NCBI GenBank assembly: GCA_000004695.1
Contig: CM000151.3
Location: 288,001 to 352,000, forward strand
Source: Dictyostelium discoideum
Taxonomy: Eukaryota
DNA length: 64,000 bases
Direction: 5' to 3'
Shown: positions 3,225 through 54,883 of the stretch, in pieces
Layout: every line of letters starts with the position of its first letter
Position numbering within the stretch: position 1 is the first letter of the stretch
Notes under the pieces: generated by a model
What the model saw: the letters and a program-made list of their open reading frames with translations, nothing else
Told to the model about the DNA's origin: nothing
The model's database searches: none
Position numbers and translations under genes: made by a program

Positions 3225-3884
3225 GTCCCATGCCAAAATTATCATATTAATTTCAGCAGCCATATTAATTTTGGCATGGGACTTATGTCTGCCAAAATTA
3301 CCGTATTAATTTCAGCATGTACATAGCAGCCAAAATTAATAAGGTAATTTTGGCATAGAAAAAAAAAAAAGTCAAAGTCATTTAATTAATAATCATCTCA
3401 AATATAAACAAAATTTTAGTACTAAAATTATTATTATTATTTTTATTATAATAATTATAATAAAAAAAAAAAAAAAAAAATTTCATATTATTTTATTTAT
3501 ATCTTTTATTTATTTTTATCTTTTTATTTTTATTATTAATTTTATAATTTATTTTCATTTCTTTTTTTTAGTTGATGTATATTTTTTTATTATTCATTTA
3601 TGTCTACGTTCTAATAAAAAAAATATACACAAAAAAAAAAAAAATTAAAAATAAAAAAAAAAATAAATTGAAGGCACTCATATACTGTCTTCCCAAATAA
3701 CATGTTTTTCAATGTTTTTATACAAATCAGAATTATTTTAAAATAAATTTATGGGATTCTTTTTTTTGTTAATCAAGCAAAATAACGCAGGTATCTCAAT
3801 CAGTCACTTTTCTAAATATTAATTTTTTATTATTAAATCATTATATAATTAAATTAATTAAAATAATTAAAAAAAAAATAAAAA

Positions 3885-3920
<36 letters not shown>

Positions 3921-4420
3921 GAATGAAATGGAATAAAATAAATTAAAAAAAAGAAATACAGAAATTAAAGAAACTTATTTCGAAATTGTTTAAACAATCA
4001 TACAGTTTAAAATTAAATAAATTGTTTTAAACCACCACTTTTTTTGAACACATGAAAATAAATAAGAAATAAAAATAAAAAGATAAAAAAAGATTTGTTT
4101 TTATTTTTTTTTATTTTATAATTATTCTTGTCGTCAGTATTGTTACTATTAATTAATCCCATGAGTTTTTTATTATTATTATTTTTAATTCTTTTATATT
4201 TGAGATGATTATTATTAATTAAATGACTTTGAGTTTTTTTTTTTATTTTTCTATGCCCAAAATTACCATATTAATTTCAGCCTAAAATAGGTGGTCTGTG
4301 CATGCCAAAATTAATATGGCTGCTGAAATTAATATGGTAATTCTAGCAGACATAAGTCCCATGCCAAAATTATCATATTAATTTCAGCAGCCATATTAAT
4401 TTTGGCATGGGACACGTGAT
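3225..4420. mobile_element. MITE-like non-autonomous element (P element family) with complex palindromic termini
   Basis: The same 58-bp palindrome GTCCCATGCCAAAATTATCATATTAATTTCAGCAGCCATATTAATTTTGGCATGGGAC sits at both ends (3225-3282 and 4366-4420). Subterminal modules (CTCAAATATAAA..AATGACTTTGA..CTATGCC) are in inverted orientation at 3340-3420 versus 4190-4265. The interior is AT-rich and non-coding. Related ends occur at 11760-11885, 19690-20155, 45890-46030, 60020-60500 and 61930-62215. Confidence 0.6.
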
Positions 4421-6764: not shown

Positions 6765-8618
6765 ATGTCAACAAATAAAAAAATAAAAACAGATAATAAT
6801 AATAAAATATTTCAAGATATTATTGATTTTGAAATTTTAAAATCTATAATCGATTATTTATTAACCAGCAAAAAAAATAAAAATAATAATAATATTAATA
6901 ATAATCAATATATAATTAAAAAATTTTATTTATATAGAGATGAAATATTAAATTATATATTAGTTTCAAAAAAGTGGTATAATTTTATATCATTTACAAT
7001 ATCAAATAATATTATTAATAATAAACTATTTGAACATTGGTTAAAAACTAATTTTAGTAATAATTCATTTATTGAAAATTATAATAATCAAAATCAATAT
7101 GATAAAAATAATTTAATTTATAATAACATAGAAGATAAACAATATAAAATTAGTTTTAATAAAGAATTTTCAATTATAAAAATCAAAGAATCAATAATCA
7201 ATGATTATTTTAAATTCAATTTATTTTTAGATCATTTTACGATTGACGATGATTTTAAAGAAATTAAAAATAAATTTGAAAAAAATCAATTACTTTATCA
7301 TAGAATTGTAGTTAGTGTTGATACTGATAATTATGGGTTTCCTAGTGATATTTTATTTACAATACATGAATATGTATCAAATGAAAATTCAGAAATCATA
7401 TCAAATTTATTTAAAATATTAGAATTAAATTTTGATTTTTGGTTGGATTACGGATATTGTCCACGTTCTGAAGAGGAGGATGATGAAGGTAATAAAAAAT
7501 GTAGAGAAATATATTTAAATAATTTATCAATTGCTGGTTATAATAGAGAAGTAGGTGAAGATGAAGAAACATTAAAGATATTCAAAATTTTCAAAAGTAA
7601 AAATATAATTTATGATGGATCCAATATTGATGAAAGTGATACTCCAACACATATCGATTATTCAACATTATTCGATCCAGATAATTCAGGTCAACAAGTT
7701 GAATCAATTAAAGTAAAAAATGAATATGGTAATGAAGCACGTCATTTAATCAAACTTAATCAATTTAAAAATTTACATTCAATTACAATACCAATTAATT
7801 CATTTCAAATATTATCAAACTTATCTGAAGAAATGGGATTTTGTAAGTTATATCGTACGATATATTCAGGTGATTCAGATAATATGAAATCAGAATTAAA
7901 TCAAATGATTAATTCATTCATTACAAATAAATCTTTAAAGTATTTAAATATATCATCTGTAAATTCAATATACACTCTTCCAATTAAAAATTATGATGGA
8001 GGTTATCATGAAATTTTTTTTAATAAAATAAATAAAACTATAGAATCATATTCAAATTCATTTAAACCATTATTTTCAGAATTAAATACATCGATTGAAA
8101 GAATTGAATTTGATTGTATGGGTTTATTAAATAATAAATCAATTAAATATTTATATTTATATGATAGTGATTTCATTGTTTATTCATCAAAACAAAAAGG
8201 TAATGTTAGTGGTATTCGATTACATAAAGAACATATTTCAATTAATCAATATTTATTTGATAATATATTTTCATCACCATTAACATCAATTAGACATTAT
8301 AAAATTAAATTCATAGAATTAAATCAAATCAAATTCTTATTTAATTTAATATTAAATAATATTTTTAAATTACAATTATATTCATTAATATTTGAATTCA
8401 ATGATAGCGAATTAATTGGTGAATTTGTTAAAGAATTTAAAAACTTAATAAATAATATTTCAACACAAGAACAACAAAAATCAAATAACATAAATTTAAA
8501 AGAAATTAAGATTAAAATTCAAGATGTTAATATTGATAAATATATTCAAGAATTAAATAATATTAACAATCCATATTTTACAACAATAATAAAGAAAAAA
8601 GCTAATAATGATGATTAA
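6765..8618 (+). CDS. Paralog-array family member 2 (617 aa, intact)
   Basis: Same architecture and motifs as 473..2452. The conserved leader ...CTCTTTATAATTTAAACAAATAATAATG is present upstream. Confidence 0.75.
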   Translation: MSTNKKIKTDNNNKIFQDIIDFEILKSIIDYLLTSKKNKNNNNINNNQYIIKKFYLYRDEILNYILVSKKWYNFISFTISNNIINNKLFEHWLKTNFSNNSFIENYNNQNQYDKNNLIYNNIEDKQYKISFNKEFSIIKIKESIINDYFKFNLFLDHFTIDDDFKEIKNKFEKNQLLYHRIVVSVDTDNYGFPSDILFTIHEYVSNENSEIISNLFKILELNFDFWLDYGYCPRSEEEDDEGNKKCREIYLNNLSIAGYNREVGEDEETLKIFKIFKSKNIIYDGSNIDESDTPTHIDYSTLFDPDNSGQQVESIKVKNEYGNEARHLIKLNQFKNLHSITIPINSFQILSNLSEEMGFCKLYRTIYSGDSDNMKSELNQMINSFITNKSLKYLNISSVNSIYTLPIKNYDGGYHEIFFNKINKTIESYSNSFKPLFSELNTSIERIEFDCMGLLNNKSIKYLYLYDSDFIVYSSKQKGNVSGIRLHKEHISINQYLFDNIFSSPLTSIRHYKIKFIELNQIKFLFNLILNNIFKLQLYSLIFEFNDSELIGEFVKEFKNLINNISTQEQQKSNNINLKEIKIKIQDVNIDKYIQELNNINNPYFTTIIKKKANNDD

Positions 8619-9272: not shown

Positions 9273-9662
9273 TTTGGGACAGTATTTGTTCGTTTCACAA
9301 AAAAAACAATTGAAAAAATCTTTCATGGCACTAAAAAAAGATTTTTAAAAAAAAAAAAAATGGATAAAATTTTAAAAAAACGATATCCATTTTGAATAAT
9401 TTAAAAAAAAAATAGGATGTATAAAGATAATCAAAAAAGAAACTTTTTATCCAAAAATGGATAAAGGTAAAATACTAAAAATTAAAATATATATATTAAA
9501 AAAAAAAATTAAATATATTTTTTTTATATATTTATTTTTTTTTTTTTTTTTTTTTTTTCTAAAAATTTAACAAAATAAACATTTTTTCAAAAAAAAAAAA
9601 AAAAAAAAAAAAAAAATTACCTCATTATTCTCGCGCACTCTTTATAATTTAAAAAAATAATA

Positions 9663-11516
9663 ATGTCAACAAATAAAAAAATAAAAACAGATAATAATAA
9701 AAAAATATTTCAAGATATTATTGATTTTGAAATTTTAAGATCAATAATTAATTATTTATTAATCAGCAAAAAAAATAAAAATAATAATAATAATACTAGT
9801 AATCAATATAAAATTAATAAATTTTATTTAAATAGAGATGAAATATTAAATTATATATTAGTTTCAAAAAAGTGGTATAATTTTATATCATTAACAATAT
9901 CAAATAGTATTATTAATAATAAATTATTTGAACATTGGTTAAAAATTAATTATAATAATAAATCATTTATTGAAAATTTTAATAATCAAAATCAATATGA
10001 TAAAAATAATTTAATTTCTAAAAACAAAAAATATAAACAAAATAAAATTAGTTTTAATAAAGAGTTTTCAATTATAAAAATCAAAGAATCAATAATCAAT
10101 GATTATTTTAAATTCAATTTTTTTTTAGATTATATTACAATTGATGATTTTAAAGAAATTAAAAATAAATTTGAAAATAATCAATTACTTTATAATAGAA
10201 TTGTAGTTAATGGTAGTTATGAAGGGGAAGTTTTATTTGGAATACATGAATATTTATCAAATGAAAATTCAGGAGTTATTTTAAATTTATTTAAAATATT
10301 AGAATTAAATCATGCTTTTAATTTATATTATAAACCAAAATCTGAAGAGAAGGATGAGGAGGATGGTCATGATGATAAAGGTAATAAGAAATGTACTGAA
10401 ATATATTTAAATAGTTTATCAGTTTTTGGTTTTGATGAAGGTGAGGGTGAAGTTCAAACATTAAAGATATTCAAAGTTTTCAAAGGTAAAAATTTAGTTT
10501 ATGATGGATCTGAAGAAGATCCTGATTTTCAAACACATATCAATTACTCTGCATTATTTGATCCAGATAGCTCAGGTCAACAAGTTGAATCGATTCAAGT
10601 ACAAAATAAATATGATAATGAAGAGTCAGTCGAAGCACGTCATTTAATCAAAGTTAATCAATTTAAAAATTTACATTCAATTATAATACCAATTAATTCA
10701 TTTCAAATATTATCAAACTTATCTAAAGAAATGGGATTTATTAGTTCCCATGGTTATGAAGAATATTCAGGAAATTCAGAAAATATGAAATCAGAATTAA
10801 ATCAAATGATCAATTCAATCGTTACAAGTAAATCTTTAAAGAATTTAAAAATAACATCTGTAAATTCAATATATTATCCAATTGATTACAAAGCTTTTTA
10901 TGATGGTGATCTTGAAACCCTTACTAATAAAGTAAATGAAACTATAGAATCATTTTCAAATTCATTTAAACCATTATTTTCAGAATTAAATACATCAATT
11001 GAAAGAATTGAATTTGATTGTATGGGTTTATTAAATATCAATACATTTTCAAATTTATTAAATAATAAATCAATTAAATATTTATATTTATATAATAGTG
11101 ATTTCATTGTTTTTTCACCTAAAAAAAGAGGTGGTCCATTTCATAGAGAACCTATTTCAATTAATCAATATTTATTTGATAATATATTTTCATCACCATT
11201 AACATCAATTAGACATTATAAAATTAAATTCATAAAATCAAATGAATTAAAATTCATATTTAATTTAATATTAAATAATATTTTTAAATTACAATTATAT
11301 TCATTAATATTTGAATTCAATGAAAACGAATTAATTGGTGAATTTTTTAAAGAATATAAAAATTTAAAAAATAATATTTCAACACAACAACAAAAATCAA
11401 ATAACATAAATTTAAAAGAAATTAAAATTAAAATTAAAGATGATGAATATATTCAAGAATTAAATAATATTAATATTCCATATTTCACCACAACATTAAT
11501 AAAGAAAATAACCTAA
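9663..11516 (+). CDS. Paralog-array family member 3 (617 aa, intact)
   Basis: Paralog with the same N-terminal F-box-like motif, ALFDPDSSGQQVESIQV core and IPYFTTTLIKKIT end. Conserved leader upstream. Confidence 0.75.
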   Translation: MSTNKKIKTDNNKKIFQDIIDFEILRSIINYLLISKKNKNNNNNTSNQYKINKFYLNRDEILNYILVSKKWYNFISLTISNSIINNKLFEHWLKINYNNKSFIENFNNQNQYDKNNLISKNKKYKQNKISFNKEFSIIKIKESIINDYFKFNFFLDYITIDDFKEIKNKFENNQLLYNRIVVNGSYEGEVLFGIHEYLSNENSGVILNLFKILELNHAFNLYYKPKSEEKDEEDGHDDKGNKKCTEIYLNSLSVFGFDEGEGEVQTLKIFKVFKGKNLVYDGSEEDPDFQTHINYSALFDPDSSGQQVESIQVQNKYDNEESVEARHLIKVNQFKNLHSIIIPINSFQILSNLSKEMGFISSHGYEEYSGNSENMKSELNQMINSIVTSKSLKNLKITSVNSIYYPIDYKAFYDGDLETLTNKVNETIESFSNSFKPLFSELNTSIERIEFDCMGLLNINTFSNLLNNKSIKYLYLYNSDFIVFSPKKRGGPFHREPISINQYLFDNIFSSPLTSIRHYKIKFIKSNELKFIFNLILNNIFKLQLYSLIFEFNENELIGEFFKEYKNLKNNISTQQQKSNNINLKEIKIKIKDDEYIQELNNINIPYFTTTLIKKIT

Positions 11517-11759: not shown

Positions 11760-11885
11760 ACAGTTAATTAATCCCATGAGTTTCTATTTGTTTATATTTG
11801 AGATGATTATTAATTAAATGACTTTGACTTTTTTCTTTTTTCTATGCCAAAATTACCATATTAATTTCAGCATATACATAGCTGC
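11760..11885 (+). repeat. Solo end fragment of the palindromic-end MITE family
   Basis: TTAATTAATCCCATGAGTTT..ATTTGAGATGATTATTAATTAAATGACTTTGA..CTATGCCAAAATTACCATATTAATTTCAGC matches the 4110-4290 terminus. No partner end nearby. Confidence 0.5.
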
Positions 11886-11936: not shown

Positions 11937-12050
11937 CTATTTCTTTATTACTGTTGTGAAATATGGAATATTAATATTATTTATTTCTTGAATATATTCA
12001 TTATCATTAGTTTCAATTTTAATTTCTTTTAAAGTAATGTTATTTGATTT

Positions 12051-12126
<76 letters not shown>

Positions 12127-13916
12127 ATTGAAATATTATTTATTAAATTTTTAAATTCTTTAACAAAATCACAAACTAATTCGTTTTTATTGAATTCAAA
12201 TATTAATGAATATAATTGTAATTTAAAAATATTATTTAATATTAAATTAAATATGAATTTTAATTGATTTAATTCATTCAATTTAATTTTATAATGTCTA
12301 ATTGATGTTAATGGTGATGAAAATATATTATCAAATAAATATTGATTAATTGAAATAGGTTCTTGATGTAATTCATTACCGCTATAACTTGGTTTTGAAG
12401 AGTAAACAATGAAATCACTACCATATAAATATAAATATTTAATTGATTTATTATTTAATAAATTTGAAAATGTATTGATATTTAATAAACCACAACAATC
12501 AAATTCAATTCTTTCAATTGATGTATTTAATTCTGAAAATAATGGTTTAAATGAATTTGAAAATGATTCTATAGTTTCGTTTATTTTATTAGCAAAAATT
12601 TCATGATCAGCTCCCTTACAATCACGATAATATAAACCTTCATAATCAATTGGAGAATATTTTGAACTTACTGATGAGATATTTAAATTCTTTAAAGATT
12701 TACTTGTAATAAATGAATTGATCATTTGATTTAATTCTGTATTAATATTTTCAGAGTTACCCGATTCTGATTTACTATTATAAAATCTAATAAATCCCAT
12801 ATCCTCAGATAAGTTTGATAATATTTGAAAAGAGCTAATTGGTATTGTAATTGAATGTAAATTTTCAAATTGATTAACTTTGGCTAAATGGAGAGGTTCA
12901 ACAAATTCATCATTATCAGGTTCAATTTGTACTTTAATTGATTCAACTTGTTGACCTGAATTATCTGGATCAAATAATGCTGAATAATTGACATGTGTAG
13001 GCATATCACTACAAGTATCAGATCCATCATAAAATATATTTCTACCTTTGAAAATTTTGAATATCTTTACTGTTTCTTCATCATTACCTACTTCTCCATC
13101 AAAACCTGCAATTGATAAATTATTTAAATATAATTCAGTACATTTCTTACCACCTTTATCAGTATCATGATCACCTTCCTCCTCTTCAGAGTTTGGGCTA
13201 TAACCATTATCCAAACAAAAATCAATATTTAATTCTAATATTTTAAATAATTTTGATATGACTTCTGAATTTTCATTTGATACATATTCATGTATTCTAA
13301 ATAAAGTTGTTTTATTATTATTACTATCATAATCAGCATCAACATTAACTACAATTCTATTATAAAGTAATTGATTATTTTCAAATTTATTTTTAATTTC
13401 TTTAAAATCATCAATTGTAATCTTATATAAAAATAAATTGATTTTAAAATAATCATTGATTATTGATTCTTTGATTTTTATAATTGAAAACTCTTTATTA
13501 AAACTAATTTTATTTTGTTGATAATTATAATCTTCATCTTTAAAAATTAAATTATTTTTATCATATTGATTTTGATTATTATAATTTTCAATAAATGATT
13601 TATTTTTATTATTATAATTAATTTTTAACCAATGTTCAAATAATTTATTATCAATAATATTATTTGATATTGTTAATGATATAAAATTATACCACTTTTT
13701 TGAAACTAATATATAATTTAATATTTCATTTCTATAAAAATAAAATTTATTAATTTTATATATATTAATAGTATTATTATTTAAATTATTATTTTTATTT
13801 TTATTTTTTTTGCTAGTTAATAAATAGTTGATTATAGATTTTAAAATTTCAAAATCAATAATATCTTGAAATATTTTATTGTTATTATTTGTTTTTATTT
13901 TTTTACTTGTTGACAT
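11937..13916 (-). CDS. Paralog-array family member 4 (659 aa, intact), the only inverted copy; carries a (CAA)n-encoded polyQ tract of about 26 Q
   Basis: Intact ORF on the minus strand with the family motifs. A (TTG)n/(CAA)n microsatellite at 12050-12125 encodes QQQ...Q just before the C-terminal SNNITLKEIKI motif. Confidence 0.75.
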
Positions 13917-15319: not shown

Positions 15320-15444
15320 TTAATAGAAACACTTTATCGATTATAAATAAAAATATTAAAATAACTAAAGATAAAAATGAAAATTTATAAAAAAAATTTA
15401 AATAATCATAAATAAAAGATAAAAATAAAAAGATATAAAAAAGA

Positions 15445-15475
<31 letters not shown>

Positions 15476-15583
15476 ATTCTTGTCATCAGTATTGTTACTA
15501 TAATTAATCCATGAGTTTTTTAATTATTGAATTTATATTTGAGAGATTATTATTTAAATGACTAAGAATTTTTTATTTTTTTT

Positions 15584-16540
15584 TTACTTACTATCATTAT
15601 AATCAGTAGCAGTATAGTTTATTGGGTCATCTAGCATTGATTTTAATCTATTATTATCTAATTTTCCTTCAAAATTTTCAATTTCTTGAATTGTTGTCGG
15701 AACTGATTCTAAAGATACTTTTAATAATATTATTGAAGTTGAAACTTGTTCTTTTTCTTTTTCTTTTTCTGATTCAGTTAATATCTTTAATTTTATTATT
15801 AATTTACAAGTGGTAATTAATCTTTTTAATGTTGATCTTTCATTAACCTGATATATAGTTTTGAGGTTTTTAATTATTAGATCAATTGTTAATTTACTAT
15901 TATTACAACTACTACTATTATTATTATTATTATTATCATTACCAATGTTATTTAAATAACATAATAATCCTTTAAAAATATTATCATTTTTTGGAATTTC
16001 ATCTAACTCGATTGATTTCTCACCAAAATCAGTGTTATTTAATGATGTTTCTAATGATGTTGATGATGGTGAGTTTGATTTTTTTAATTCTAAATTCTTT
16101 GATTGTATTATTGCAGTTGATACATAAATTGGTGAAGAGTAATAATACCTTTGAATTTTGAAAAAGTTTCTATTAAATTTGAAATCATTTTTAATTATTT
16201 CAAATAATTTCTTTAAATAAATTAAAATTAAATCTTTACGCCAACTAGATTGATCAGACTCTTTACGCCAACAAGTTTCACCAAATTCTAAATATCTACA
16301 ATTTCTATAAGCTTTTTCTTTTAAAATACTAATTTGATTTGAATCTATTAGTTTAGTTATTGACGATACTGAATCGTAACTAAATGAATATTGGTTATAC
16401 ATAAATGAGAATATCTTTTTATAAATTGCTTTATTTCTAAACAATTTCCAAAATAATATTTCAATTGGTTCTATATTATCTGTAATTGTTAATTTTATTG
16501 AATGAATTAGTATTTTCTTTTCGTTCATGTTCTTCTTCAT
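15584..16540 (-). CDS. ORF1-family protein (318 aa), intact short copy; transposon-associated, function unknown
   Basis: Intact ORF MKKNMNEKKILIHSIKLTITDNIEPIEILFWKLFRNKAIYKKIFSFM.... An identical N-terminal 150 aa occurs in the longer degenerate copy at 55222..57782. Family fragments at 58300-58400 and 63450-64000. Bounded downstream by a truncated palindromic-MITE terminus (15470-15580). Confidence 0.6.
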   Translation of the reverse strand: MKKNMNEKKILIHSIKLTITDNIEPIEILFWKLFRNKAIYKKIFSFMYNQYSFSYDSVSSITKLIDSNQISILKEKAYRNCRYLEFGETCWRKESDQSSWRKDLILIYLKKLFEIIKNDFKFNRNFFKIQRYYYSSPIYVSTAIIQSKNLELKKSNSPSSTSLETSLNNTDFGEKSIELDEIPKNDNIFKGLLCYLNNIGNDNNNNNNSSSCNNSKLTIDLIIKNLKTIYQVNERSTLKRLITTCKLIIKLKILTESEKEKEKEQVSTSIILLKVSLESVPTTIQEIENFEGKLDNNRLKSMLDDPINYTATDYNDSK

Positions 16541-17424
16541 ATTCTCTTTTTCTTTTTTTTTACAATTTTAATCCTTTCAATTATTTCTTGTTTATTTAAG
16601 TGATTTATTTCTATACAATATGATTTTGCAATTTCTTTAATTGATTTTAAATTCTTTTTCTCTAATTCACAATTATTATCATTATCTTTATCATCTTATT
16701 AATTAAAGATGACAAAAATAATTTAAATATATAAATTATTTTTCATTGTTGTGGTGGTGGGGGAAATTAAAAAATAAAAAAAAAAAAATATAAAAAAATA
16801 TAAAAAAAAATATAAAAAAAAAAATAAAAAAAAAAAAAAACAAATAAAAAACATTTTTATGGTGAAACGGATTTTATTTAGTTTTTTTTTTTTTTTTTTT
16901 TTTTTTCTATTTTATTTTTTTTTTTTACTATTTTATTAAATATTTATATTTAAAAAAAAAAAAAAAAAAAACATATAAAAAACATTTTGTAACACTTAAA
17001 AAAAAAAAAAAAAAAAAAAAAATTCAGCGACTCTATTATGGTTTTAAAAAAAAAATGGTAAGTCATAAATATTCACTTAAAATAAACAAAAGTTTTACAA
17101 TCTTTATTATGATATACTAATATTAATTTTAGAAAAAAAAAAAAAAAAAAAAAAATTTTAGTTTAGATTAAAAAATTTTAAAAATAAAGGAATTAAATGT
17201 TATTGAAAATTAAATAAAATTAAATTTATTTATTTATTTATTTATTTATTTATTTGTTTATTTATTTTTTATTTATTTAATGGAATTCCGTTTATATATT
17301 TTTTTTTAATGAAATTTCATTAATTTTTTTTCAATGAAATTTCAAACAAAGAAATAAGCAAATATATATTATTTGTTTATTTCTTTGTTTGAAATTTCGT
17401 TGAACATTATTTTTAAACGAATTC

Positions 17425-17550
17425 AAATGACTACATAACCCCTGTAAGCGGTTAGTATCCCCTTGTAATCCTTACAACCAGTGTAGCCCACAAATCCGGC
17501 CATTCGTCTTACAGGCCTATTAGCCGCTTACAGGGGTTACGTAGTCATTT
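17425..17550. repeat. GC-rich (about 55% GC) 126-bp palindromic element: 27-bp inverted repeats around a 71-bp core with three CTTACAGG motifs
   Basis: AAATGACTACATAACCCCTGTAAGCGG ... CCGCTTACAGGGGTTACGTAGTCATTTT. A second copy in inverse orientation lies at 54262-54400 with 5 substitutions, none compensatory. It stands out sharply in AT-rich surroundings. Confidence 0.55.
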
Positions 17551-18086
17551 TGCTCGTTGGGGGTGTAATTAATATTTATTTATATTTTTATTATGGGCTA
17601 ATTCTTTTTTTATTATTTAATGATAATTTTATATTAAAATATGATATATTATTAATTAATATTAATTTGTTAAAAATTTTATTATATTATAATCTCTTTA
17701 TAAAAAGTGAGAAATTATGTGTCATAAAATATCTAATAAAATAATGAATTTTCTAAAATTTTTTTTTCCAGCGAATAATAAAAAAAAAAAAACTGTTTTT
17801 GTTAACAATGGGGTGAAGATGATTTATTGTAATTTTTTAATAATTTTAGTTCTGTTTTTTTTTTAATGGAGATATGAGAGAGATTATTATGATATTTTGA
17901 ATGATTGGATCATAGTAATAAAACAATATTTTTAATTTTTTTCTTTTTTTTTTTTCTTTTCATTCTTTTTTTTTTTCTTTTCATTCTTTTTTTTTAGTAC
18001 TTAATCTTTTTTTTTTTCATCTTTCAAAATAAAAAAAAAATATTTATATAAATTTTAACTTTAAATTAAAATAAATAAATTTTAGA

Positions 18087-18509
18087 ATGGCTGAAGAATA
18101 TCATCAATTGAAAATTACAATATTTACTGATAAAGGGAGATCAACAATAAGTGGTTTTGGTAAGTTAATTAGAATTATTAATTTATAAATATTTAATTTT
18201 AGTTTATATATTAAAAAATGTAACATTTAATTTCATTCTTCTGGCTTTTTTAAAAATATAGAGTATCCTCAACCTATATTACCTTATCCTGCACCATATA
18301 CTTTTAGATTTTTTCATTACGATATTGAAGGCCCAAATTTAACCAACAAAGAATTTAAAGTAAAAACAGGTAAAATTGAATACAAAGGAGAAGAATTTGA
18401 TATTCCTCCATCATCTAAGGGCTCATGGAGAAGAGAAGATAACCTATTCGATTTAATCTCTGTTACAATATATCCAAGTAGACAACCAAAAAAAGTTTTT
18501 CATTATTAG
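18087..18509 (+). CDS. Small two-exon gene (about 106 aa), hypothetical protein. Exon 1 is 18087..18159, intron 18160..18261, exon 2 18262..18509
   Basis: ATG..GGTTTTG|GTAAGTT donor and TATAG|AG acceptor. The spliced frame gives MAEEYHQLKITIFTDKGRSTISGFEYPQPILPYPAPYTFRFFHYDIEGPNLTNKEFKVKTGKIEYKGEEFDIPPSSKGSWRREDNLFDLISVTIYPSRQPKKVFHY*. A diverged paralog with the same exon/intron structure lies at 53330..53751 (-). Confidence 0.6.
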
Positions 18510-18766
18510 ATCTTAAAAACAGATCTGAAACAATGAAAACAAAAATAAAAAATTTTAAAATTTTTTCATAATTGAATTGATATAAAAAAAAAATTATGAT
18601 TAAAAAAAAAATATGTGTGGAAAAAAAAAAAAATTAAAAATAAAAAATATATTTGTTTATGGTGTTATGTTTTTTGGTAAGGTTTAAAGTGATCAAAAAA
18701 TTATCATTCAAACTTGTATACCAGTGTTCGACCTTTTTCCACATTTGGAAAAAAAGGGTGTCTTTT

Positions 18767-19420
18767 TTAATTTCCCTTCCATTCCATGTTTTTGTTTGAT
18801 TGAGTTGTGATTCCACCATTATTGGAAGTTGTTGCAGCTTCATGTGTTGATCTAACTTCGGTGGTAGAGTGCTCGATTGCTTTTCCAACTAGGTCATCTG
18901 TTGATTTTCTTTTGGTTATTTCGATATCCCTTTGCAATTTATTTTTACTTGAGAGTTTGGTGGCCTCTATTCTAGAAGTAGGCTCAGTATTGTAATAAGC
19001 CTTTATAATAGCAGAATGATTATCTGCTTTATAATGATTACTGATGTGCTGTTGACACTGGTTTTGATTAATCATATGAGAGACACCATCTTCATCTTTG
19101 TTAAGCCTAACCTTCTCTATAATCTTCACTAAGTCTTTTGGGTACCAATTTTTTCTTTTTATCTTTATCAATATAAAACACTTCTTTAATAGTTGCCGTA
19201 CCATATTCTACATTCTCAACAACATACTGTTTATCCAAAATGTTTTTCCAATAGCTTATATTTTGTCCACTCAATTTGGTATTATGAAATTTATAATCTA
19301 TTTTAAATTTTACATCTTCGTCATATTTTTCCAAGAGTTTTTTTAATTTATTTTTATTATTTTTTCAATTTCTGTTGCAGAAAGTTGATTATTTAATTTA
19401 TTGTCTTTACTGAAGACCAT
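18767..19420 (-). pseudogene. ORF-T: repeat-associated coding region split across two overlapping frames (19107..19334 and 18767..19204); probable transposon ORF with a frameshift
   Basis: The MEKYDEDVKFKIDYKFHNTKLSGQ...LVPKRLSEDYREG frame ends where the frame-shifted MVRQLLKK...RLNKDEDGVSHM...EATTSNNGGITTQSNKN frame is already open. A third upstream segment (MVFSKDNKLNNQLSATEIEKIIKIN*) needs another +1 shift. A mirror copy at 60955..61697 (+) has the same frame breaks. Confidence 0.4.
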
Positions 19421-19620
19421 TTTTTGGAACGAAAACTTTAAAAAAATAAAAAAATAAAAAAAAAAATACTTTTTTTTTTTAATTTTTTTTTTTATATTTT
19501 TTTTTTTATATTTTTTTTTTTTAAATTTTTTTTTTTAATTTTTTTTTTTTATTTTATTTTTTTAAAGTTTCGAACAATTATATATAAAAAAAAAGTAAAA
19601 GATATCCCTTCGGTTAATTA

Positions 19621-19689
<69 letters not shown>

Positions 19690-19698
<9 letters not shown>

Positions 19699-20155
19699 TT
19701 CGAAATGTTTAAACAATCATACAGTTTAAAATTAAATAAATTGTTTTAAACCACCACTTTTTTTGAACACATGAAAATAAATAAGATATAAAAATAATAA
19801 GATAAAAAAAGATTTTTTTTTTTTTTTTTTTTTATTTTATAATTATTCTTGTCGTCAGTATTGTTACTATAATTAATCCCATGAGTTTTTTTTATTATTA
19901 TTTTTAATTCTTTTATATTTGAGATGATTATTATTAATTAAATGACTTTGAGTTTTTTTTTTTATTTTTCTATGCCCAAAATTACCATATTAATTTCAGC
20001 AGCCATATTAATTTCAGCCTAAAATAGTTGGTCTGTGCATGCCAAAATTAATATGGCTGCTGAAATTAATATGGTAATTCTAGCAGACATAAGTCCCATG
20101 CCAAAATTACCATATTAATTTCAGCAGCCATATTAATTTTGGCATGGGACACACA
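19690..20155 (+). repeat. Terminus of the palindromic-end MITE family, capping the 15.4-20.2 kb duplicated block
   Basis: Matches the 3955-4420 subterminal and terminal sequence, including the double palindrome ...CCATATTAATTTCAGCAGCCATATTAATTTCAGC...GTCCCATGCCAAAATTACCATATTAATTTCAGCAGCCATATTAATTTTGGCATGGGAC. Preceded by (AAT)n at 19621-19690. Confidence 0.55.
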
Positions 20156-21489: not shown

Positions 21490-23472
21490 ATGTCAACAAA
21501 AAAAAAAATTAAAACAGATAATAATAATAAAATATTTCAAGATTTTATTGATTTTGAAATTTTAAGATCTTTAATCAATTATTTATTAATCAACAAAACA
21601 AATAATAATAATAATAATAATAATAAATATAAAATTAGTAAATTTTATTTACATAGAAATGAAATATTGAATTATATATTAGTTTCAAAAAAGTGGTATA
21701 ATTTTATATCATTAACAATATCAAATAATATTATTAATAATAAATCATTTGAACATTGGTTAAAAATTAATAATAATAATAATAATAAATCATTTACTAA
21801 AAATTATAATAATCAAAATCGATATGATAAAAATAATTTAATTTTTAATAACAAATATAGTAAAAATAAAATTGGTTTTAATAAAGAATTTTCAATTATA
21901 AAAATCAAAGAATCAATAATCAAAGATTATTTTAAATTCAATTTATTTTTAAGTAATATTACAATTGATGATTTTAAAGAAATTAAAAATAAATTTGAAA
22001 ATAATCAATTAGTTTATAATAGAATTGTTGTTGATATTAAAACTGGCTATTATGGTGAAGGGAATCAAGATGAAATTTTATTTAAAATACATGAATATGT
22101 ATCAAATGAAAATTCAGAAATCATATCAAATTTATTTAAAATATTAGAATTAAATCATGATTTTATGATAATCGATGACTTTCATCCAAAATCTAAAGAA
22201 GAGGATGAAGAGGATGAGGAGGATGATGAAAATGATAAAGGTAGTAAGAAATGTACTGAAATATATTTAAATAATTTATTGGTTTCCGGTTATGATCTAA
22301 CTATGGATGAGGATGAAGATAGAGAATCATTAAAGATATTCAAAATATTTAAAAGTAAAAATATATTTTATGATGGGTCTGGTATTGCTAGTGATATTCC
22401 AACACATGTCAATTATTCAGCATTGTTTGATCCTGATAATTCAGGTCAACAAGTTGAATCGATTAAAGTAAAAAATGAACTTGAAGATCCTGATTTTGTA
22501 GAACCACTCCATTTAATCAAAGTTAATCAATTTAAAAATTTACATTCAATTACAATACCAATTAATTCATTTCAAATATTATCAAACTTATCCGAAGAAA
22601 TGGGATATTTTAGTATCGATTGTTTTAAATCTGGTTTTGGTCTTTCAGATAATATGAAATCAGAATTAAATCAAATGATCAATTCATTCATTACAAGTAA
22701 ATCTTTAAAAAATTTAAAAATAACATCTATTAGTACAAAAGAAGATCCAATTGATTATGATGCTTATTATGATGAAGGTGATCTTCAAACTTTTATGAAT
22801 CAAATAAATGAACCTAAAGAATCATTTTCAAATTGTTTCAAACCATTATTTTCAGAATTAAATACATCAATTGAAAGAATTGAATTTGATTGTTGCGGTT
22901 TATTAAATATCAATACATTTTCAAATTTATTAAATAATAAATCAATTAAATATTTATATTTATATGATAGTGATTTCTTTTTTTCTTCATTAAAAACAAG
23001 TGATGGTGGTAGTGATGATTGTGGTATTGATGATGATGGTGGTAGTGATGATTGTGGTATTGATGATGATGGTGGTAGTGATGATTGTGATGCATATCAA
23101 AAAATTATTTCCATTAATCAATATCTATTTGAAAATATATTTTCATCACCATTAACATCAATTAGACATTACAGAATTAAATTCAAAGAATTAGATGAAT
23201 TAAAATTCATATTTAATTTAATATTAAATAATATTTTTAAATTACAATTATATTCATTAATATTTGAATTCAATGAAAACGAATTAGTTTATGAATTTGT
23301 TAAAGAATTTAAAAATTTAATAAATAATATTTCAATACAAGAACAACAACAACAACAACAAAAATCAAACAACATAAATTTAAAAGAAATTAAAATTATA
23401 ATAAATGATGACTGTTTAGAAGAATTAAATAATCCATATTTCAAAACAACAATAAAGAATAGCCCATATTAA
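21490..23472 (+). CDS. Paralog-array family member 5 (660 aa, intact); contains an internal 3x (DDCGIDDDGGSD) tandem expansion
   Basis: Intact ORF with the family motifs. A 39-nt unit is repeated three times at 22990-23100 inside the variable region that precedes the conserved ISINQYLF motif. Confidence 0.75.
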   Translation: MSTKKKIKTDNNNKIFQDFIDFEILRSLINYLLINKTNNNNNNNNKYKISKFYLHRNEILNYILVSKKWYNFISLTISNNIINNKSFEHWLKINNNNNNKSFTKNYNNQNRYDKNNLIFNNKYSKNKIGFNKEFSIIKIKESIIKDYFKFNLFLSNITIDDFKEIKNKFENNQLVYNRIVVDIKTGYYGEGNQDEILFKIHEYVSNENSEIISNLFKILELNHDFMIIDDFHPKSKEEDEEDEEDDENDKGSKKCTEIYLNNLLVSGYDLTMDEDEDRESLKIFKIFKSKNIFYDGSGIASDIPTHVNYSALFDPDNSGQQVESIKVKNELEDPDFVEPLHLIKVNQFKNLHSITIPINSFQILSNLSEEMGYFSIDCFKSGFGLSDNMKSELNQMINSFITSKSLKNLKITSISTKEDPIDYDAYYDEGDLQTFMNQINEPKESFSNCFKPLFSELNTSIERIEFDCCGLLNINTFSNLLNNKSIKYLYLYDSDFFFSSLKTSDGGSDDCGIDDDGGSDDCGIDDDGGSDDCDAYQKIISINQYLFENIFSSPLTSIRHYRIKFKELDELKFIFNLILNNIFKLQLYSLIFEFNENELVYEFVKEFKNLINNISIQEQQQQQQKSNNINLKEIKIIINDDCLEELNNPYFKTTIKNSPY

Positions 23473-24385: not shown

Positions 24386-24842
24386 ATTTTCCTCTGAATC
24401 TAACTATTCTTCATTGCCATATTCAATGGCTAAATTTCTTAAGAGTTTTATCGAATCTATTAATTCTTCGATCATTCTTTTTTTTTGAAATTTTTTTTTA
24501 TTTTGTTTTTTCAATTTTTTTTTTTTATTTTGTTTTTTCAATTTTTTTTAAGTTTTATTTTTTTTTATTTTTTTTTATTTTTTTTAACAAATGTAATTTT
24601 TTTTTATTTTTTTCAATTTTTTTTTTTTTTTAATTTTTAATTTTTTTTTTTTTTTTTAATTTTTTGTGTTGATTTGTGTTTTTTTTGTTTTTTTGATTTG
24701 GCCACTTGTTTTTATTTTCTAATTTCCCCATACCCCCTTCTATTAATTGCAACCAAATCAAGTTCTAATTTTTGTGTCCTTGTTAACTTTGTTTTTGCAA
24801 CTTTTTTTGAAGGTATCACATTAACGATTTTTCCTATTGATG

Positions 24843-25042
24843 GTGATTTGGAAGGTGATTTAAATGGTGATTTAAAAGGTGAATTGGAAGGTGATTTAAA
24901 TGGTGAATTGGAAGGTGAAATGGATGGTGATTTGGAAGGTGATTTAAATGGTGATTTGGAAGGTGATTTTAATGGTGATTTAAATGGTGAATTGGAAGGT
25001 GAAATGGATGGTGATTTGAGAGGTGATTTGGATGGTTTAGAA
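24843..25042. repeat. 15-bp tandem repeat (GGTGATTTRRAWGGT, about 13 units); possible subterminal transposase-binding repeats
   Basis: Direct tandem units in the DNA. Translates in the + frame to GDLEGDLNGDLKGELEG..., but more likely non-coding. Its reverse complement carries the AAATCACC motif that is also tandemly repeated inside the R elements. Confidence 0.5.
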
Positions 25043-26121
25043 TGTGATTTTAAAGGAGGTTTATTAACAATTGGTAGGACGGGAGGACGGCCTCTGAACA
25101 GTTGTTACTATACCACTATACCATTACCAGATTGTGGTATAGTATACGATGGTATTATTTGCACTTGAGGTAACTATTTCTTTTAATCTTTTAAATTCAT
25201 ATCCTTTCTCAAACAATTCATTAAATTTGGCGCTGTTAGATTATTATTTAAAAATGGGAGTATTTCTTCTTGTTCCATTTCATTATTGAGTTTGTGTTGA
25301 AATGGATTATCGTTAATGATAGGTGGAATATTTGATGGATTGTTAATAGCATCTTCCAAAACCCTAAATGGATCATTTTGTGTTACCAATTGATGCAAGT
25401 TGAAATTGGATAAATCCTTACCAAGATTTTTAATAAACTGAACCAAAAATTCAATAACTTTCCCATCATTATTTAAATAAAGACCAGAAGTAAAAGAATC
25501 AATATCTTTTTGTATGTTTGGCGATGTTCTAAAAATATCAACTGTTGATTGTTTATAAAGAACCAACTTGTTACCTCCTACAAAACCAGAGTATAAACCT
25601 TTTTTTTGAAGGCTATTGATTCCATCTTCCAAAAATTCAAGTTTATAAAGTTGTTTAGTGTCTTCCTGTATTACCTTATGAATTTTACACAAAATCAATA
25701 TTTTCTATTAGAATTAAATATAAAATTTGTTAATTATTACTGTTTCATATATTATTAATCTTTATGTTTTAATTACTTACATTATTTTTTTTAATTTCTA
25801 GAAAGAGTACAGTATCACCAACTTTCAATCCCTTTGGTGGTTTTGAATTCCATTGATTTTGGTAACTTGTGAGATTTTCAAGAATAATAGCTGTTCTTTC
25901 TTCTTTTGAAACATCTGAAACACCAATTGATTGAGAGTCTTGTTCTGATTGAACATTAATAAACAAAGGAACAATACCAACAGCTTGAGATGGTGTCATT
26001 TTAATTGTTCTTGTTTTTGTATTATTGTAATCATACAAAGCTTGTTTTAATAGTTCAGAAAGAGACCTAGAAGTACCATCAAGAAAACTAAAATTTATTT
26101 ATAAATGATTAATTAATAAAC

Positions 26122-26873
26122 ATCACAGCAAAGAAAAAACCACCTTTAAATTCGCTTTAAATTAAATTTAAATTTGCTTTAAAGTCCTGAATTAAAGCAA
26201 TTTTAAAGGTAATTTTTAAGGTTACTTTAAAATCACCTTAAAAATTACCTTTAAAATTACCTTTAAAATTACCTTTTTAATGGCTTTAAAAGCGAGGTCC
26301 TGAGTTCGAATCCGTTATTTAACGGATAAATTTTTTAAAATTTTTTTTTTAATTTTTCAAAAATTACCCAAAAGGGATTCGATCCCCCGACCCTCTATCA
26401 AAGGGTAGTCTCATCAACCATTACACCATTTGATTGCTTTGATGAAAAATTTAAAAATGATAGAATATTTTATCCCCATTTTTTTGTGCTAAAATTAGAT
26501 CTTTTTTATTAAAAATCTTAAATTTATGTTTAAAGGAAATTTAAATTCACTTTAAATCTACTTTTAATCTACTTTAAATCCTATTTAAAATTAATTTAAA
26601 ATAAATTTTAAAGGTATTTTTAAATATCTTAAAAATTATCTTAAAAATTACCTTAAAAATCACCTTTAAAATCACCTTTAAAATCACCTTTAAAATTGCT
26701 TAAAAATTTATTTTAAAGCAAATTTTAAAGGCATTTTTAAATATCTTAAAAATTACCTTAAAAATTACCTTAAAAATGAATTTTTTAAACGCGGCTTTAA
26801 ATTCAATTTAAATCCAATTTAAATCAACTTTTCTTTAAATTTGCTTTAAAGGTGCATTTTTCTTTGCTGTGAT
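26122..26873. mobile_element. R element copy 1 (about 750 bp, MITE-like) inserted in the transposase gene
   Basis: 12-bp terminal inverted repeat ATCACAGCAAAG / CTTTGCTGTGAT. Internal tandem AAATCACCTTT and AAATTACCTTT repeats. Internal tRNA-like segment with A-box and B-box. Flanked on both sides by AT. A second copy at 27678..28458 is more than 98% identical in the same orientation. An R-like fragment also lies inside a MITE at 35100-35200. Confidence 0.6.
26374..26437 (-). ncRNA. tRNA-like module inside R element (A-box TGGTGTAATGG, anticodon-arm-like ACCCT/TTGATAG/AGGGT, B-box GGATCGAATCC); lacks an acceptor stem, so a tRNA-derived / SINE-like promoter module
   Basis: The minus strand reads GCAATCAAATGGTGTAATGGTTGATGAGACTACCCTTTGATAGAGGGTCGGGGGATCGAATCCC. 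The T-arm and anticodon arm fold, but the 3' acceptor strand does not pair with the 5' end. An identical module lies in R2 at 27959..28022. Confidence 0.4.
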
Positions 26874-27677
26874 ATCGATAATTTATATTGTTCACAATAT
26901 CATACTCTTGTTGTTTTAATTTTGAGATCCTCTCCTTGATAGTTCGATTCAATCTTTCTACCATACCTTGAGTTGTTGGTGTACGAGGAGCTCCATGTGC
27001 TGACTTGGAGCCTGGAAAAAGTTTTAGGAATTCTTTTTGGACTTTGTTTTTAAATTCACGTCCATTATCGCAGTGCCATACTTTCACAGGTTTGCCAAAG
27101 TACGTGAGAGCCAAAAAATTGTATATGGGAACTGTTCTCTTTGTTGTCAAACATCTAAAAAATAAATGATAATTAAAATAAAAAAAGAAAACTAATAAAT
27201 TAATAAATAAAAAATAAATACCTTCCAGTAGCAAATTTTGTAAAAGAATCTATGCATAGAATAATGTAAACAACATCGGTGTCGTACGGTTGTACAGAGT
27301 CATATTGGATAAGATCATCTAGTTTAGTTAGTATCTTTTCATTATCATCATCGTATGTAACTTTTTCTTTATGTTCACCTTTAATTGATGTTAAATCATA
27401 AACCAATCTTGAGTATTCCTCGGTATCTACAATTGGAGCAAAATCCTTTGTTATACCTATTAATTTATTTAAATTATTAAAAGAGTTTTAATATAAAAGT
27501 TACAAAACATCATATAAAAATGATTGATACCAAACCTTTTATTCTATTTCGTTGGCAAATGTCACACGTATCTACTGCATCAGATACAAAAGAATACAAT
27601 CCCATATTATAATATTTAGTCTTGTAGTTCCCATAGGTTGCATCTCTTCCTATATGACCTTTATGCATTTCTTCCCA

Positions 27678-28458
27678 GAGTGATACCATCACAGCGAAGA
27701 AAAAACCACCTTTAAATTCGCTTTAAATTAAATTTAAATTTGCTTTAAAGTCCTGAATTAAAGCAATTTTAAAGGTAATTTTAAAGGTAATTTTTAAGGT
27801 TACTTTAAAATCACCTTATTTAATATTTATTTATAGGCTTATCATTTAAGCTGAAGGGTTATTTTAATGGCTTTAAAAGCGAGGTCCTGAGTTCGAAGCC
27901 GTTATTTAACGGATAAATTTTTTAAAATTTTTTTTTAATTTTTCAAAAATTACCAAAAGGGATTCGATCCCCCGACCCTCTATCAAAGGGTAGTCTCATC
28001 AACCATTACACCATTTGATTGCTTTGATGAAAAATTTAAAAATGATAGAATATTTTATCCCCATTTTTTTGTTCTAAAATTAGATCTTTTTTATTAAAAA
28101 CCTTAAATTTATGTTTAAAGGAAATTTAAATTCACTTTAAATCTACTTTAAATCTACTTTAAATCCTATTTAAAATTAATTTAAAATAAATTTTAAAGGT
28201 ATTTTTAAATATCTTAAAAATTATCTTAAAAATTACCTTAAAAATCACCTTTAAAATCACCTTTAAAATCACCTTTAAAATTGCTTAAAAATTTATTTTA
28301 AAGCAAATTTTAAAGGCATTTTTAAATATCTTAAAAATTACCTTAAAAATTACCTTAAAAATGAATTTTTTAAACGCGGCTTTAAATTCAATTTAAATCC
28401 AATTTAAATCAACTTTTCTTTAAATTTGCTTTAAAGGTGCATTTTTCTTTGCTGTGAT
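27678..28458. mobile_element. R element copy 2 (MITE-like) inserted in an exon of the transposase gene
   Basis: Same TIRs and internal structure as 26122..26873. Removing it plus one flanking AT dinucleotide joins ...EVCLEVINDYR to MVSLWEEMHKGHIGRD... in frame. Confidence 0.6.
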
Positions 28459-28743
28459 TCTATAATCATTAATTACTTCTAAACACACTTCTTTTGATAT
28501 ATTTCTATCTCCGCCACAATTCATGACTTTTTTTTCAATTCTAAATAATTTTTCTTTTCTGTTTCTGTTTTTTATTGGTCAGAATTTAAAAAATGATTGT
28601 GTTATTGTAAGGAAAAATATTTACTCATCATGTAAAAATTTATAATTTTTATGTTTAGTATTTTCAAAATTATTATCTTCAATAAATTTTAAATAATTTA
28701 TAATTTCATTTATTTTATCTTGTTTCATTTTGGGAAAATGAAA

Positions 28744-29313: not shown

Positions 29314-31125
29314 ATGTTAACAAATAAAAAAATTAAAACAGATAATAGTAATAAAATATTTTCAAATACTAATGATAATGAAATTTTAAGATCTTTAATC
29401 GATTATTTATTAATCAGCAAAAACAATAAAACAAATAATAATAATAATGCAAATCAATATAAAATTAAAAAAATTTTAATAAATAGAAATGAAATATTCA
29501 ATTATATATTAGTTTCAAAAAAGTGGTATAATTTTATATCATTAACAATATCAAATAATATTATTGATAATAAATCATTTGAACATTGGTTAGAAATTAA
29601 TTATACAAAAAAATCATATACTAAAAATAATAATAATCAAATTCAATATGATAAAAAGAAAATTAATTTTAATAAAAAGTTTTCAATTATAAAAATCCAA
29701 GAATCAATAATCAATGATTATTTTAAATTCAATTTATTTTTAGATAATTTTACAATTAATTATTTTAAAGAAATTAAAGATAAATATGAAAATAATCAAT
29801 TAGATTATAAAAGAATAGTTGTTAATCTTAAAACTAATTCTGGTGGTAATAAAAAAATTTTATTAAATATAAATGAATATGTATCAAATGAAAATTCAGA
29901 AATCATACCAAATCTATTTAAAATATTAGAATTAAATTCTGATTTTAAGTTGGACAAGTGCTATATTCCAATATCTGAAGGTACTGAAATATATTTAAAT
30001 AATTTATCGATTTCTGGTTATGAGGGTATAACATCGAAGATATTCCAAATTTTCAAAAGTAAAAAGATAATTTATGATGGGTCTTGTTGTCCAACAAATG
30101 TCAATTATTCAAAGATATTTGATCCAGATAATTCAGGCCAACAAGTTGAATCGATTAAAGTTAAAAATGAAAGTGGTAATAAACAGTTTGTTGAACCACA
30201 TCATTTAATTAAAGTTTACCAATTTGAAAATTTACATTCAATCACAATACCAATGGATTCATTTCAAATATTATCAGGCTTTTCTGAAAAAATGGGATTC
30301 AATAAATTTGATATGAATAATAAATATCCAGGTAATTCGAAAAATATGGAATCAGAATTAAATCAAATGATCAATTCATTCATTACAAGTGAATCTTTAA
30401 AGAATTTAAAAATATCATCAGTATGTTCACAATACGTTATTTTTAAAATGAATATTGATAAAATAAATCAAATTAAAGAATCAATTTCAAAATCATTTAA
30501 ACCATTATTTTCAGAATTAAATACATCAATTGAAAGAATTGAATTAGATTGTGGTGGTATATTAAATATCAATACATTTTCAAATTTATTAAATAATAAA
30601 TCAATTAAATATTTATATTTATATGATAGTGATTTTATTGTTTATTCATTTAAACAAACTGGTGGTGGAAGTTATTGTAGTATTAATCAATTTCTATTTG
30701 AAAATATATTTTCATCACCACAAACATCAATTAAACATTATGGATTTTGCTTCAAAAAATCAAATGAACTCGAATTAATATTTAATTTAATATTAAATAA
30801 TATTTTTAAATTACAACTATATTCATTAATATTTGTATTAAATAAAAACGAATTAATTGAGAAATTTGTTAAAGAATATGGAAAATTTATAAAAAAAATT
30901 TCAACACTAATACAAAAACCACAACAAGAACAACAAGAAAAACAAGAACAAGAACAACAACCACAGGAAATACAAAATTTAAATTTAAAAGAAATTAAAA
31001 TTAAAATTAAAATTAAAATAAAATTATTTTAAAATTAAATATAATCAATATTTTCAAGAATTAAAAAATTTAAAAAATCCATATTTCACAACAGTAATAG
31101 AGAAAACGGTTAATATTAATGGTTA
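29314..31125 (+). pseudogene. Paralog-array family member 6 (572-aa ORF 29314..31032 plus a frameshifted C-terminus); lacks the acidic variable insert
   Basis: Family motifs are present. After the stop at 31032 the NPYFTTVIEK C-terminal motif continues in another frame (31040-31125). Could be a real frameshift or a homopolymer sequencing error. Confidence 0.55.

Positions 31126-54850: not shown

Positions 54851-54883
<33 letters not shown>

Follow-up and report, generated by a model that had tools for sequence, protein, structure and literature searches.

We asked why a block of about 4.7 kb occurs twice, in opposite orientation and with its parts in a different order, within one 64,000-nucleotide stretch of Dictyostelium discoideum chromosome 2 (GCA_000004695.1, contig CM000151.3, positions 288,001 to 352,000; hereafter the window). 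Block A (15393-20151) joins a host module, here called X, which carries a small gene of the csb family, a GC-rich palindrome and a gene of the open reading frame 1 (ORF1) family, to a part of a thug-S-like DNA transposon, here called Y. Block B, further along the window, contains the corresponding parts X' and Y'. The first-pass annotation had offered two readings of this arrangement, either two copies of a composite element that might have passed through a tandem or circular intermediate, or a segmental inversion duplication. Our analysis makes it likely that two independent processes are superimposed, namely an inverted duplication of X and later, separate insertions of the thug-S-like element, with one secondary deletion.

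Self-BLAST confirmed the inverted and circularly permuted layout almost to the base. Block A matched 53107-58175 together with 60022-61578 (E = 0), and all the modules that had been listed were present in both copies, in the order described. With A read on the plus strand and B reverse-complemented, X extends over 15393-18797 (X', 58175-53107) and Y over 18787-20151 (Y', 61578-60022 on the opposite strand); A therefore reads X-Y, and the reverse complement of B reads Y', a 1.85-kb gap and X'. The matching segments within X were 15393-15536 with 58175-58027 (89%), 15581-16112 with 56269-55753 (93%), 16088-18618 with 55674-53234 (92.5% over 2543 columns, E = 0) and 18670-18797 with 53233-53107 (97.7%). 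Those within Y were 18787-19693 with 61578-60680 (98.6%) and 19693-20151 with 60478-60022 (97.4%). The shortfall in the 92.5% figure was mostly due to homopolymer and microsatellite indels; by substitutions, X and X' were 96.6% identical (104 mismatches in 3045 aligned bases).

The transposon part of block B proved to be an insertion in its own right. The gap in B (58302-60021, plus strand) holds the remains of a second ORF1-family pseudogene, of which tblastn detected an N-terminal piece (58302-58471) and a C-terminal piece (59799-60021). Y' belongs to a complete transposon that follows at 60022-62200 (minus strand, 2179 bp), with the termini TGTCCCATGCC...GGCATGGGACA and the target-site duplication (TSD) ATTAAC at 60016-60021 and 62201-62206. 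In tblastn searches, the sequences to its left (59799-60025) and right (62196-62300) encoded consecutive parts of the C terminus of the ORF1 family, the right-hand part (62201-62300, plus strand) corresponding to residues 889-923 of P0010 and 845-879 of P0015. In-silico removal of 60022-62206, that is, of the element and one copy of the TSD, restored a single frame, ...EYIHQNFDFILKKNSEGGIL/TIKELKYFLFSSLQRDKVKISKFLFQFISISE (...GGIL/TIKELK...), whose alignment to DDB_G0271166 and DDB_G0271438 ran through the insertion point without a gap. Y' is a clean, independent insertion.

The complete element contains ORF-T (61161-61697, plus strand; DDB_G0271172), a (TTA)51 array (60601-60752) and a hairpin at 60037-60125 that matches the microRNA (miRNA) family mir-7131. 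Its truncated counterpart Y (18787-20151, plus strand) corresponds to element positions ~625-2179 and comprises a truncated ORF-T (18767-19204, minus strand; DDB_G0271194), an (AAT)24 array (19621-19693) and the terminal part (19693-20151), with the mir-7131 hairpin at 20048-20136. The third copy in the window (3224-4414, plus strand; 1.19 kb) is internally deleted and resembles a miniature inverted-repeat transposable element (MITE); it has both termini, the TSD CGTGAT and the hairpin at 4311-4399. All element ends start with TGTCCCATGCCAAAATTA, as seen by direct alignment of five ends in the window. Three extra complete copies of 1955-2001 bp were found, two on chromosome 3 (L009 and L010) and one on another contig (L011), and both ends were present in these as well as in 60022-62200 and 3224-4414. 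Each of the five complete copies was flanked by a 6-bp TSD (ATTAAC and CGTGAT in the window; TATAGT, GTTGCA and TATAAC elsewhere), and complete copies differed by 0-1.8%. The AX4 annotation has ORF-T genes with at least 90% identity on three contigs (8.48, 6.43 and 4.92 Mb) and one more homolog on a fourth, of 5.13 Mb. The family thus combines terminal inverted repeats, a TSD of fixed length, a restorable empty site and dispersed, nearly identical copies, as expected of a cut-and-paste transposon.

What had been described as a MITE terminus is the ~460-bp end of this 2.0-2.2 kb element. The ~460-bp unit was rejected as a free-standing MITE, since only one side of its occurrences at 19693-20151 and 60022-60478 is a true terminus; on the opposite side the sequence continues through (AAT)n into ORF-T, and the second terminus lies at 62200. 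It is the 1.19-kb copy at 3224-4414 that fits the MITE definition. A thug-like fragment of ~100 bp was also seen at 11787-11884. In the complete transposon, the interval 60478-60674, which is T-rich and takes in part of the (TTA)n array, makes the window ~196 bp longer than a second assembly, GCA_054883475.1.

All three hairpins in the window, which are folded by the terminal palindrome of the element, gave full-model matches to Rfam RF03716 (mir-7131) at 94-99 bits, against a gathering score of 74, with 98.9 bits for the A-side copy. We presume that mir-7131 represents the multicopy miRNA loci of thug-S; our literature searches returned no mention of mir-7131, and the supplements of two miRNA papers contained neither 7131 nor thug. 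ORF-T (178 amino acids) is the only conserved ORF of the element, has homologs only in Dictyostelium and is too short for a typical DDE enzyme. Pfam returned nothing above threshold for ORF-T, ORF1, a 617-residue paralog from the window or neighbouring ORFs. Proteins of Dictyostelium DNA transposons have been reported to resemble no known transposase (PMC5633606), and thug-S is the DNA transposon in which multicopy miRNA loci of D. discoideum have been located (PMC6161686, PMC4894637). The Thug family (Glöckner et al. 2001, as cited in PMC5633606) makes up ~0.1% of the genome (PMC5633606). Like thug-S, the present element is multicopy and dispersed, with terminal inverted repeats, mir-7131 hairpins at its termini and no recognisable transposase domain; the complete copies differ in being 1955-2179 bp long with a 178-residue ORF. 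From these likenesses we infer the name thug-S-like.

The point at which X meets Y in block A (18787-18797) reads ...ccattccatgttttt followed by gtttgattgag..., fusing X to the transposon interior at element position ~625 with a 7-bp microhomology, TGTTTTT. In a three-way alignment, the left part continued in B as ...ccatgttttttttaaaaacttcc..., and the right part was internal transposon sequence. B and C1, an unlinked copy of X, remained homologous for ~92 bp past the A/B boundary, where A switches to thug. Since C1 follows B past the breakpoint, the B flank is ancestral; from A it has been lost, as have the first ~624 bp of the transposon. The junction of X and Y in A is thus a derived breakpoint, and a microhomology-mediated deletion after insertion of the transposon would be the simplest way to produce it.

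A 7-bp microhomology is also typical of replication-based rearrangements, by which block A could have been made in a single event: template switching, as in fork stalling and template switching (FoSTeS) or microhomology-mediated break-induced replication (MMBIR), would have copied X' and then continued on Y' from position ~625 to its end. Y' lies just 1.85 kb from X', and Y has the same orientation relative to X as Y' has, both of which would suit this origin. The sequence of Y nevertheless points elsewhere. It differs from each chromosome-3 copy at 2 positions in ~1,300 bp (0/848 and 2/452 against L010; 2/870 and 0/452 against L009), compared with 11/1,289 (0.9%) against Y' (5/841 and 6/448), and the sole amino acid difference in ORF-T is a Gly in Y and the chromosome-3 copies where Y' has Glu. 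Furthermore, Y stops exactly at the transposon terminus, with a flank beyond it that is unrelated to the Y' flank; transposition would be expected to leave just this, and under template switching it would be a coincidence. Finally, X and X' differ by ~3% (74/2727 outside the csb exons), several-fold more than Y and Y'. Template switching is already disfavoured by these comparisons, and we consider it unlikely. The element family is very young and the A-side copy is part of that burst; with Y closer to the chromosome-3 copies than to Y' and with X and X' ~3% apart, it follows that X and Y were never duplicated together.

For X, the second of the two earlier readings was right: X is an inverted segmental duplication of a low-copy host module. 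The arms are of kilobase scale and high identity, carry the host genes csb and ORF1, lie 33-35 kb apart and are found alike in the second assembly. Both contain an old thug-like fragment. In A it forms the left edge of X (15393-15585, plus strand), corresponds to positions ~1810-1999 of the 2179-bp element without a terminus, and matches 19777-19969 and 60393-60204 at 84.5-86%, being thus ~15% diverged from the present family. Its presence in both arms (58026-58175 in B) dates it before the duplication, and its unequal length, with ~55 bp more retained in A, indicates that each arm underwent deletions of its own.

The ORF1 gene has likewise decayed differently in the two arms. In A (15584-16671, minus strand) it consists of an open exon of 318 codons (15584-16540) and an upstream exon (16585-16671); compared with copy B it lacks an internal 105 bp and, at the 3' end, 1.76 kb of coding sequence, and its open frame stops exactly where the old transposon fragment starts. 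In X' (53107-58175, minus strand), which contains the csb gene, the palindrome and the old thug fragment as well, ORF1 is long and disrupted (55091-57782, plus strand): a 105-bp segment that A lacks contains an in-frame stop, frameshifts follow further on, and the 1.76 kb of 3' coding sequence has been kept. The part common to both copies is 98.6% identical. By tblastn with DDB_G0271438 and DDB_G0271166, ORF1 belongs to a Dictyostelium-specific family of ~890-950 amino acids, whose members were 33-39% identical to a composite ORF1 query over ~95% of its length; no Pfam domain above threshold was found in proteins of this family. Block B lies within the tandem array of the family and keeps the long ORF1; this native setting, together with a flank common to other copies of X, suggests that the donor of A was B-like.

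X is a family of at least four copies. A locus ~190 kb distant on the same contig, that of DDB_G0271320/0271326, contains two more (L006, 2363-4627 and 8266-10583), with the same gene order, csb gene, palindrome and 5' part of ORF1, and 89-95% identity to B. No thug sequence was found in these two copies. In another strain, an ORF1-family gene was seen next to a csb array, in divergent orientation.

The two arms have probably also exchanged sequence. They share a perfectly identical tract of 392 bp (16321-16712 and 55441-55050) that runs from ORF1 exon 1 through the intron into the beginning of exon 2, and over 16175-16712 there was one mismatch in 538 bp, compared with 3.3% elsewhere in X (binomial p = 2e-7). 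Judged from this pattern, gene conversion between the arms would be the likeliest explanation, with constraint as the alternative, and the tract suggests physical exchange between the inverted arms. Sharing such a tract, the arms could plausibly mediate an inversion of the 33 kb between them, a stretch that contains five paralogous genes (at 21490, 29314, 35360, 39301 and 46485); that the two blocks flank part of the paralog array had been noted. The earlier suggestion that this geometry is prone to inversion is to that extent plausible, although no inversion between the two assemblies was seen in the sampled parts of the interval. In general terms, the arms resemble other inverted low-copy repeats in their kilobase scale (3.2 kb aligned), their host genes and their identical tract, and differ from a simple pair in belonging to a family of at least four copies.

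Could the transposon itself have brought X to block A? Host gene sequence abuts the transposon interior at a microhomology there, as in Pack-MULEs (gene-carrying Mutator-like elements) and composite transposons, and X might have been captured during abortive gap repair after excision, in the manner of Pack-MULE transduplication or filler DNA. More specifically, a thug element resident at A would have been repaired off the ectopic B template, its first 624 bp being replaced by host DNA. The internally deleted derivative at 3224-4414 shows that such repair errors occur in the family, and the thug-like fragment at the far edge of X could have helped re-annealing. The ages argue against this: Y is separated from unlinked copies by 0-2 substitutions per compared region, compared with ~3% between X and X'. 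The thug copy being so much younger, X must already have been at A, or already have diverged, before the element arrived. Left of X, moreover, there were no thug positions 1 to ~1810 and no left terminus. Block A, unlike a Pack-MULE or composite transposon, has one transposon end and no TSD around the block, its transposon is younger than the host duplication, and X occurs elsewhere without a transposon. We regard capture of X as improbable.

Still less probable is that A and B are copies of one composite mobile element that moved X and Y together through a tandem or circular intermediate, as the first-pass annotation had considered. This idea drew its appeal from the shared modules, which are permuted in order but keep their orientation relative to one another, and from the old thug fragment that both copies carry at the far edge of X. 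No terminal repeats or TSD were found around X and Y as a whole, however, and Y' has its own TSD and interrupts a reading frame. B contains 1.85 kb of unrelated sequence (tRNA-Val and the ORF1 fragments), none of which is present in A, and B lacks the derived junction that links X to Y in A. At L006 there is X but no Y, at L009-L011 and at 3224-4414 there is Y but no X, and the two are of different ages. With the empty site restored and X and Y distributed separately, we reject the composite reading.

An assembly artefact, by repeat misjoining or collapse, is scarcely credible even for a region this AT-rich (20% G+C) and crowded with repeats and with the ~196-bp difference between assemblies at 60478-60674, since an independent assembly (GCA_054883475.1, contig JBTAPE010000001.1) runs colinear with the window, at 99.2-99.9%, through both blocks and ~8-10 kb of adjoining interval per block, the AX4 annotation independently carries the genes of both copies (DDB_G0271196 and DDB_G0271194 in A, the latter a truncated ORF-T of 145 amino acids beside staC; DDB_G0271178 and DDB_G0271172 in B), and the arms differ at more than 100 sites and so cannot be a collapsed duplicate. 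The two assemblies differed almost entirely by indels in homopolymers or microsatellites; mismatches numbered 8 in 18.6 kb, and proteins of the window were 100% identical to the AX4 chromosome-2 genes DDB_G0271196, DDB_G0271178 and DDB_G0271172.

We therefore return to an inverted duplication followed by separate insertions, which probably proceeded as follows. A module consisting of the csb gene, a divergent intergenic region of ~1.4 kb with the palindrome, an ORF1-family gene and, downstream of this gene, an old thug fragment would have been copied in inverted orientation ~35 kb away, from a B-like donor. The arms would then have diverged by ~3% at presumably neutral sites, acquired separate ORF1 deletions and frameshifts, and exchanged a conversion tract of ~0.5 kb. 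Much later, a young, genome-wide burst of the 2.0-2.2 kb thug-S-like cut-and-paste transposon would have placed one copy in an ORF1-family pseudogene 1.85 kb from X' (the complete copy with the TSD ATTAAC) and another beside X in A. There, a deletion mediated by the TGTTTTT microhomology would have taken the first ~624 bp of the transposon and the adjoining flank, fusing X to the transposon interior. With the same abundant element on opposite sides of the two arms, the apparent circular permutation would be a coincidence.

Several observations weigh against this account. The old thug fragment is ~55 bp longer in A, so that neither arm can be a straightforward derivative of the other and the account needs two or more additional deletions. 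In both copies, the homology between A and B has its left edge within ~10-20 bp of the inner end of that fragment, and Y has the same orientation relative to X in both blocks. Three thug copies and three fragments in 64 kb are a striking local density for a family that makes up ~0.1% of the genome, which hints at something other than chance, such as local hopping or a preferred target. The divergence of X is heterogeneous: at 1.4%, the shared part of ORF1 does not differ significantly from the 0.9% between Y and Y', so that the support for different ages comes from the intergenic part of X and from the chromosome-3 copies. The second assembly represents the same or a nearly identical strain and thus validates the assembly rather than the state of the population. 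Lastly, a pre-duplication or empty-site allele was not found in the other strains sampled (ACTFIW, L005 and L007; ACTFIZ, L008), whose regions, with csb arrays ~30-65% identical, are too rearranged to serve as empty sites.

Taken as an inverted duplication with insertions of a known family, a locus that looked like a new composite or permuted element becomes a case of ordinary turnover in a repeat-rich gene-family cluster, and it is a documented example of host DNA fused to the interior of a transposon through microhomology. As by-products, the analysis yields the exact ends of the element, its 6-bp TSD, a restored empty site and signs of a very recent burst, with copies on different chromosomes only 0-0.4% apart.

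The part of X that stands out for its substitutions is the small gene. In A it occupies 18087-18509 (plus strand), with exons at 18087-18159 and 18262-18509 that encode 106 amino acids, and its protein matched DDB_G0271196, that is, staC, at 100%. Its counterpart in B is DDB_G0271178 (53330-53751, minus strand), and the two paralogs at L006 are DDB_G0271320 and DDB_G0271326 (2739-3161 and 8460-8882, both minus strand). Both proteins of the window are named as csb-family proteins in UniProt and pass the threshold of Pfam PF05720 (Dicty_CAD), with 115 bits in A and 98.6 bits in B against a cut-off of 23; they differ from that family in being single-domain proteins of 106 amino acids. The name staC, the use of this gene as a stalk marker and its listing as specific to D. 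discoideum come from earlier work (PMC9117722, PMC8808424). The module context adds that staC owes its origin to the recent duplication of X, of which there are at least four copies.

The statement that the small gene and ORF1 had diverged between the blocks held for the csb exons, with 30/318 differences compared with 74/2727 in the rest of X (Fisher p = 9e-8); for ORF1 it applies to indels and truncation but not to substitutions, and the csb exons alone are unusually diverged within X. The 30 differences comprise 26 non-synonymous and 4 synonymous ones (per-site proportions pN 0.103 and pS 0.060), compared with 2/101 in the intron. Among the four paralogs (DDB_G0271196, DDB_G0271178, DDB_G0271320 and DDB_G0271326), each of the six pairs had a pN/pS of 1.6-5.1. 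Introns, flanks and the majority of codons are nearly identical in all four, and the 27 variable residues are confined to four patches (residues 5-8, 24-30, 41-45 and 82-91), in which the same codons often differ in every copy, frequently by multi-nucleotide changes. We found no earlier description of this four-patch clustering in the literature. On these comparisons, the paralogs appear to carry a signature that fits diversifying selection, with patchy conversion from other paralogs as the alternative. An AlphaFold model of the csb protein showed an all-beta domain (predicted local distance difference test score, pLDDT, 81); a Foldseek search of the PDB with this model gave no significant fold match, and a sequence search of the PDB found no relative. 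We tentatively propose, while holding the opposite to be somewhat more probable, that the csb gene is the payload that keeps X duplicating, as a member of a stalk-expressed, D. discoideum-specific family of adhesion-domain proteins under diversifying selection. In that case, the inverted duplication would have helped to enlarge a repertoire for recognition or adhesion that is diversifying rapidly, and would not be neutral junk.

Between the divergently transcribed ORF1 and csb genes lies the GC-rich palindrome (17425-17550 in A and ~54275-54400 in B; ~125 bp, with inverted ends of ~27 bp, AAATGACTACATAACCCCTGTAAGCGG). Its DNA fold had an energy of -33.5 kcal/mol (z = -8.1). Equivalents occur at L006 (~3669-3769 and 9294-9504), and over the window and the eight loci searched the motif was confined to copies of X; in C1 the palindrome has internal deletions. 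An alignment of the four copies contained no compensatory changes and thus gave no support for a structured RNA, and the matches that Rfam returned for this region at permissive thresholds were weak, to generic hairpins, and fell on the AT-rich hairpin next to the palindrome. The palindrome may act as a promoter element or as an RNA, or it may be what is left of a foldback. The adjoining AT-rich hairpin (17322-17405 in A and ~54410-54500 in B; ~85 bp and nearly perfect) is present in both arms and replaced by T-runs in two unlinked copies of the module; its miRNA-like Rfam matches are generic and below threshold.

The surrounding window (20% G+C) is a repeat-rich gene-family cluster. Nine paralogous genes, which encode 570-700 amino acids with one truncated, are arrayed at 473-2452, 6765-8618, 9663-11516, 11937-13916 (minus strand), 21490-23472, 29314-31032, 35360-37456, 39301-40200 and 46485-48395; they share ~80-85% nucleotide identity and gave no Pfam match. 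A tandem array of the second family, the ~900-residue ORF1 family, lies at the right end of the window. Other D. discoideum strains interleave the genes of these two families differently, which indicates that the region varies between strains. A tRNA-Val(AAC) gene, identified by ARAGORN and Rfam at 59021-59095 (minus strand), sits inside the ORF1-family pseudogene remains in the gap of block B, between the N- and C-terminal fragments; tRNA genes are known landing pads of Dictyostelium retrotransposons. Degenerate retrotransposon remains lie at ~24600-28500, where one ORF (26824-27234, minus strand) has an integrase-core motif and the gene model of the other assembly gave weak matches to rve and Integrase_H2C2. 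The direct repeats at 26121-26882 and 27687-28466 are 94.5% identical.

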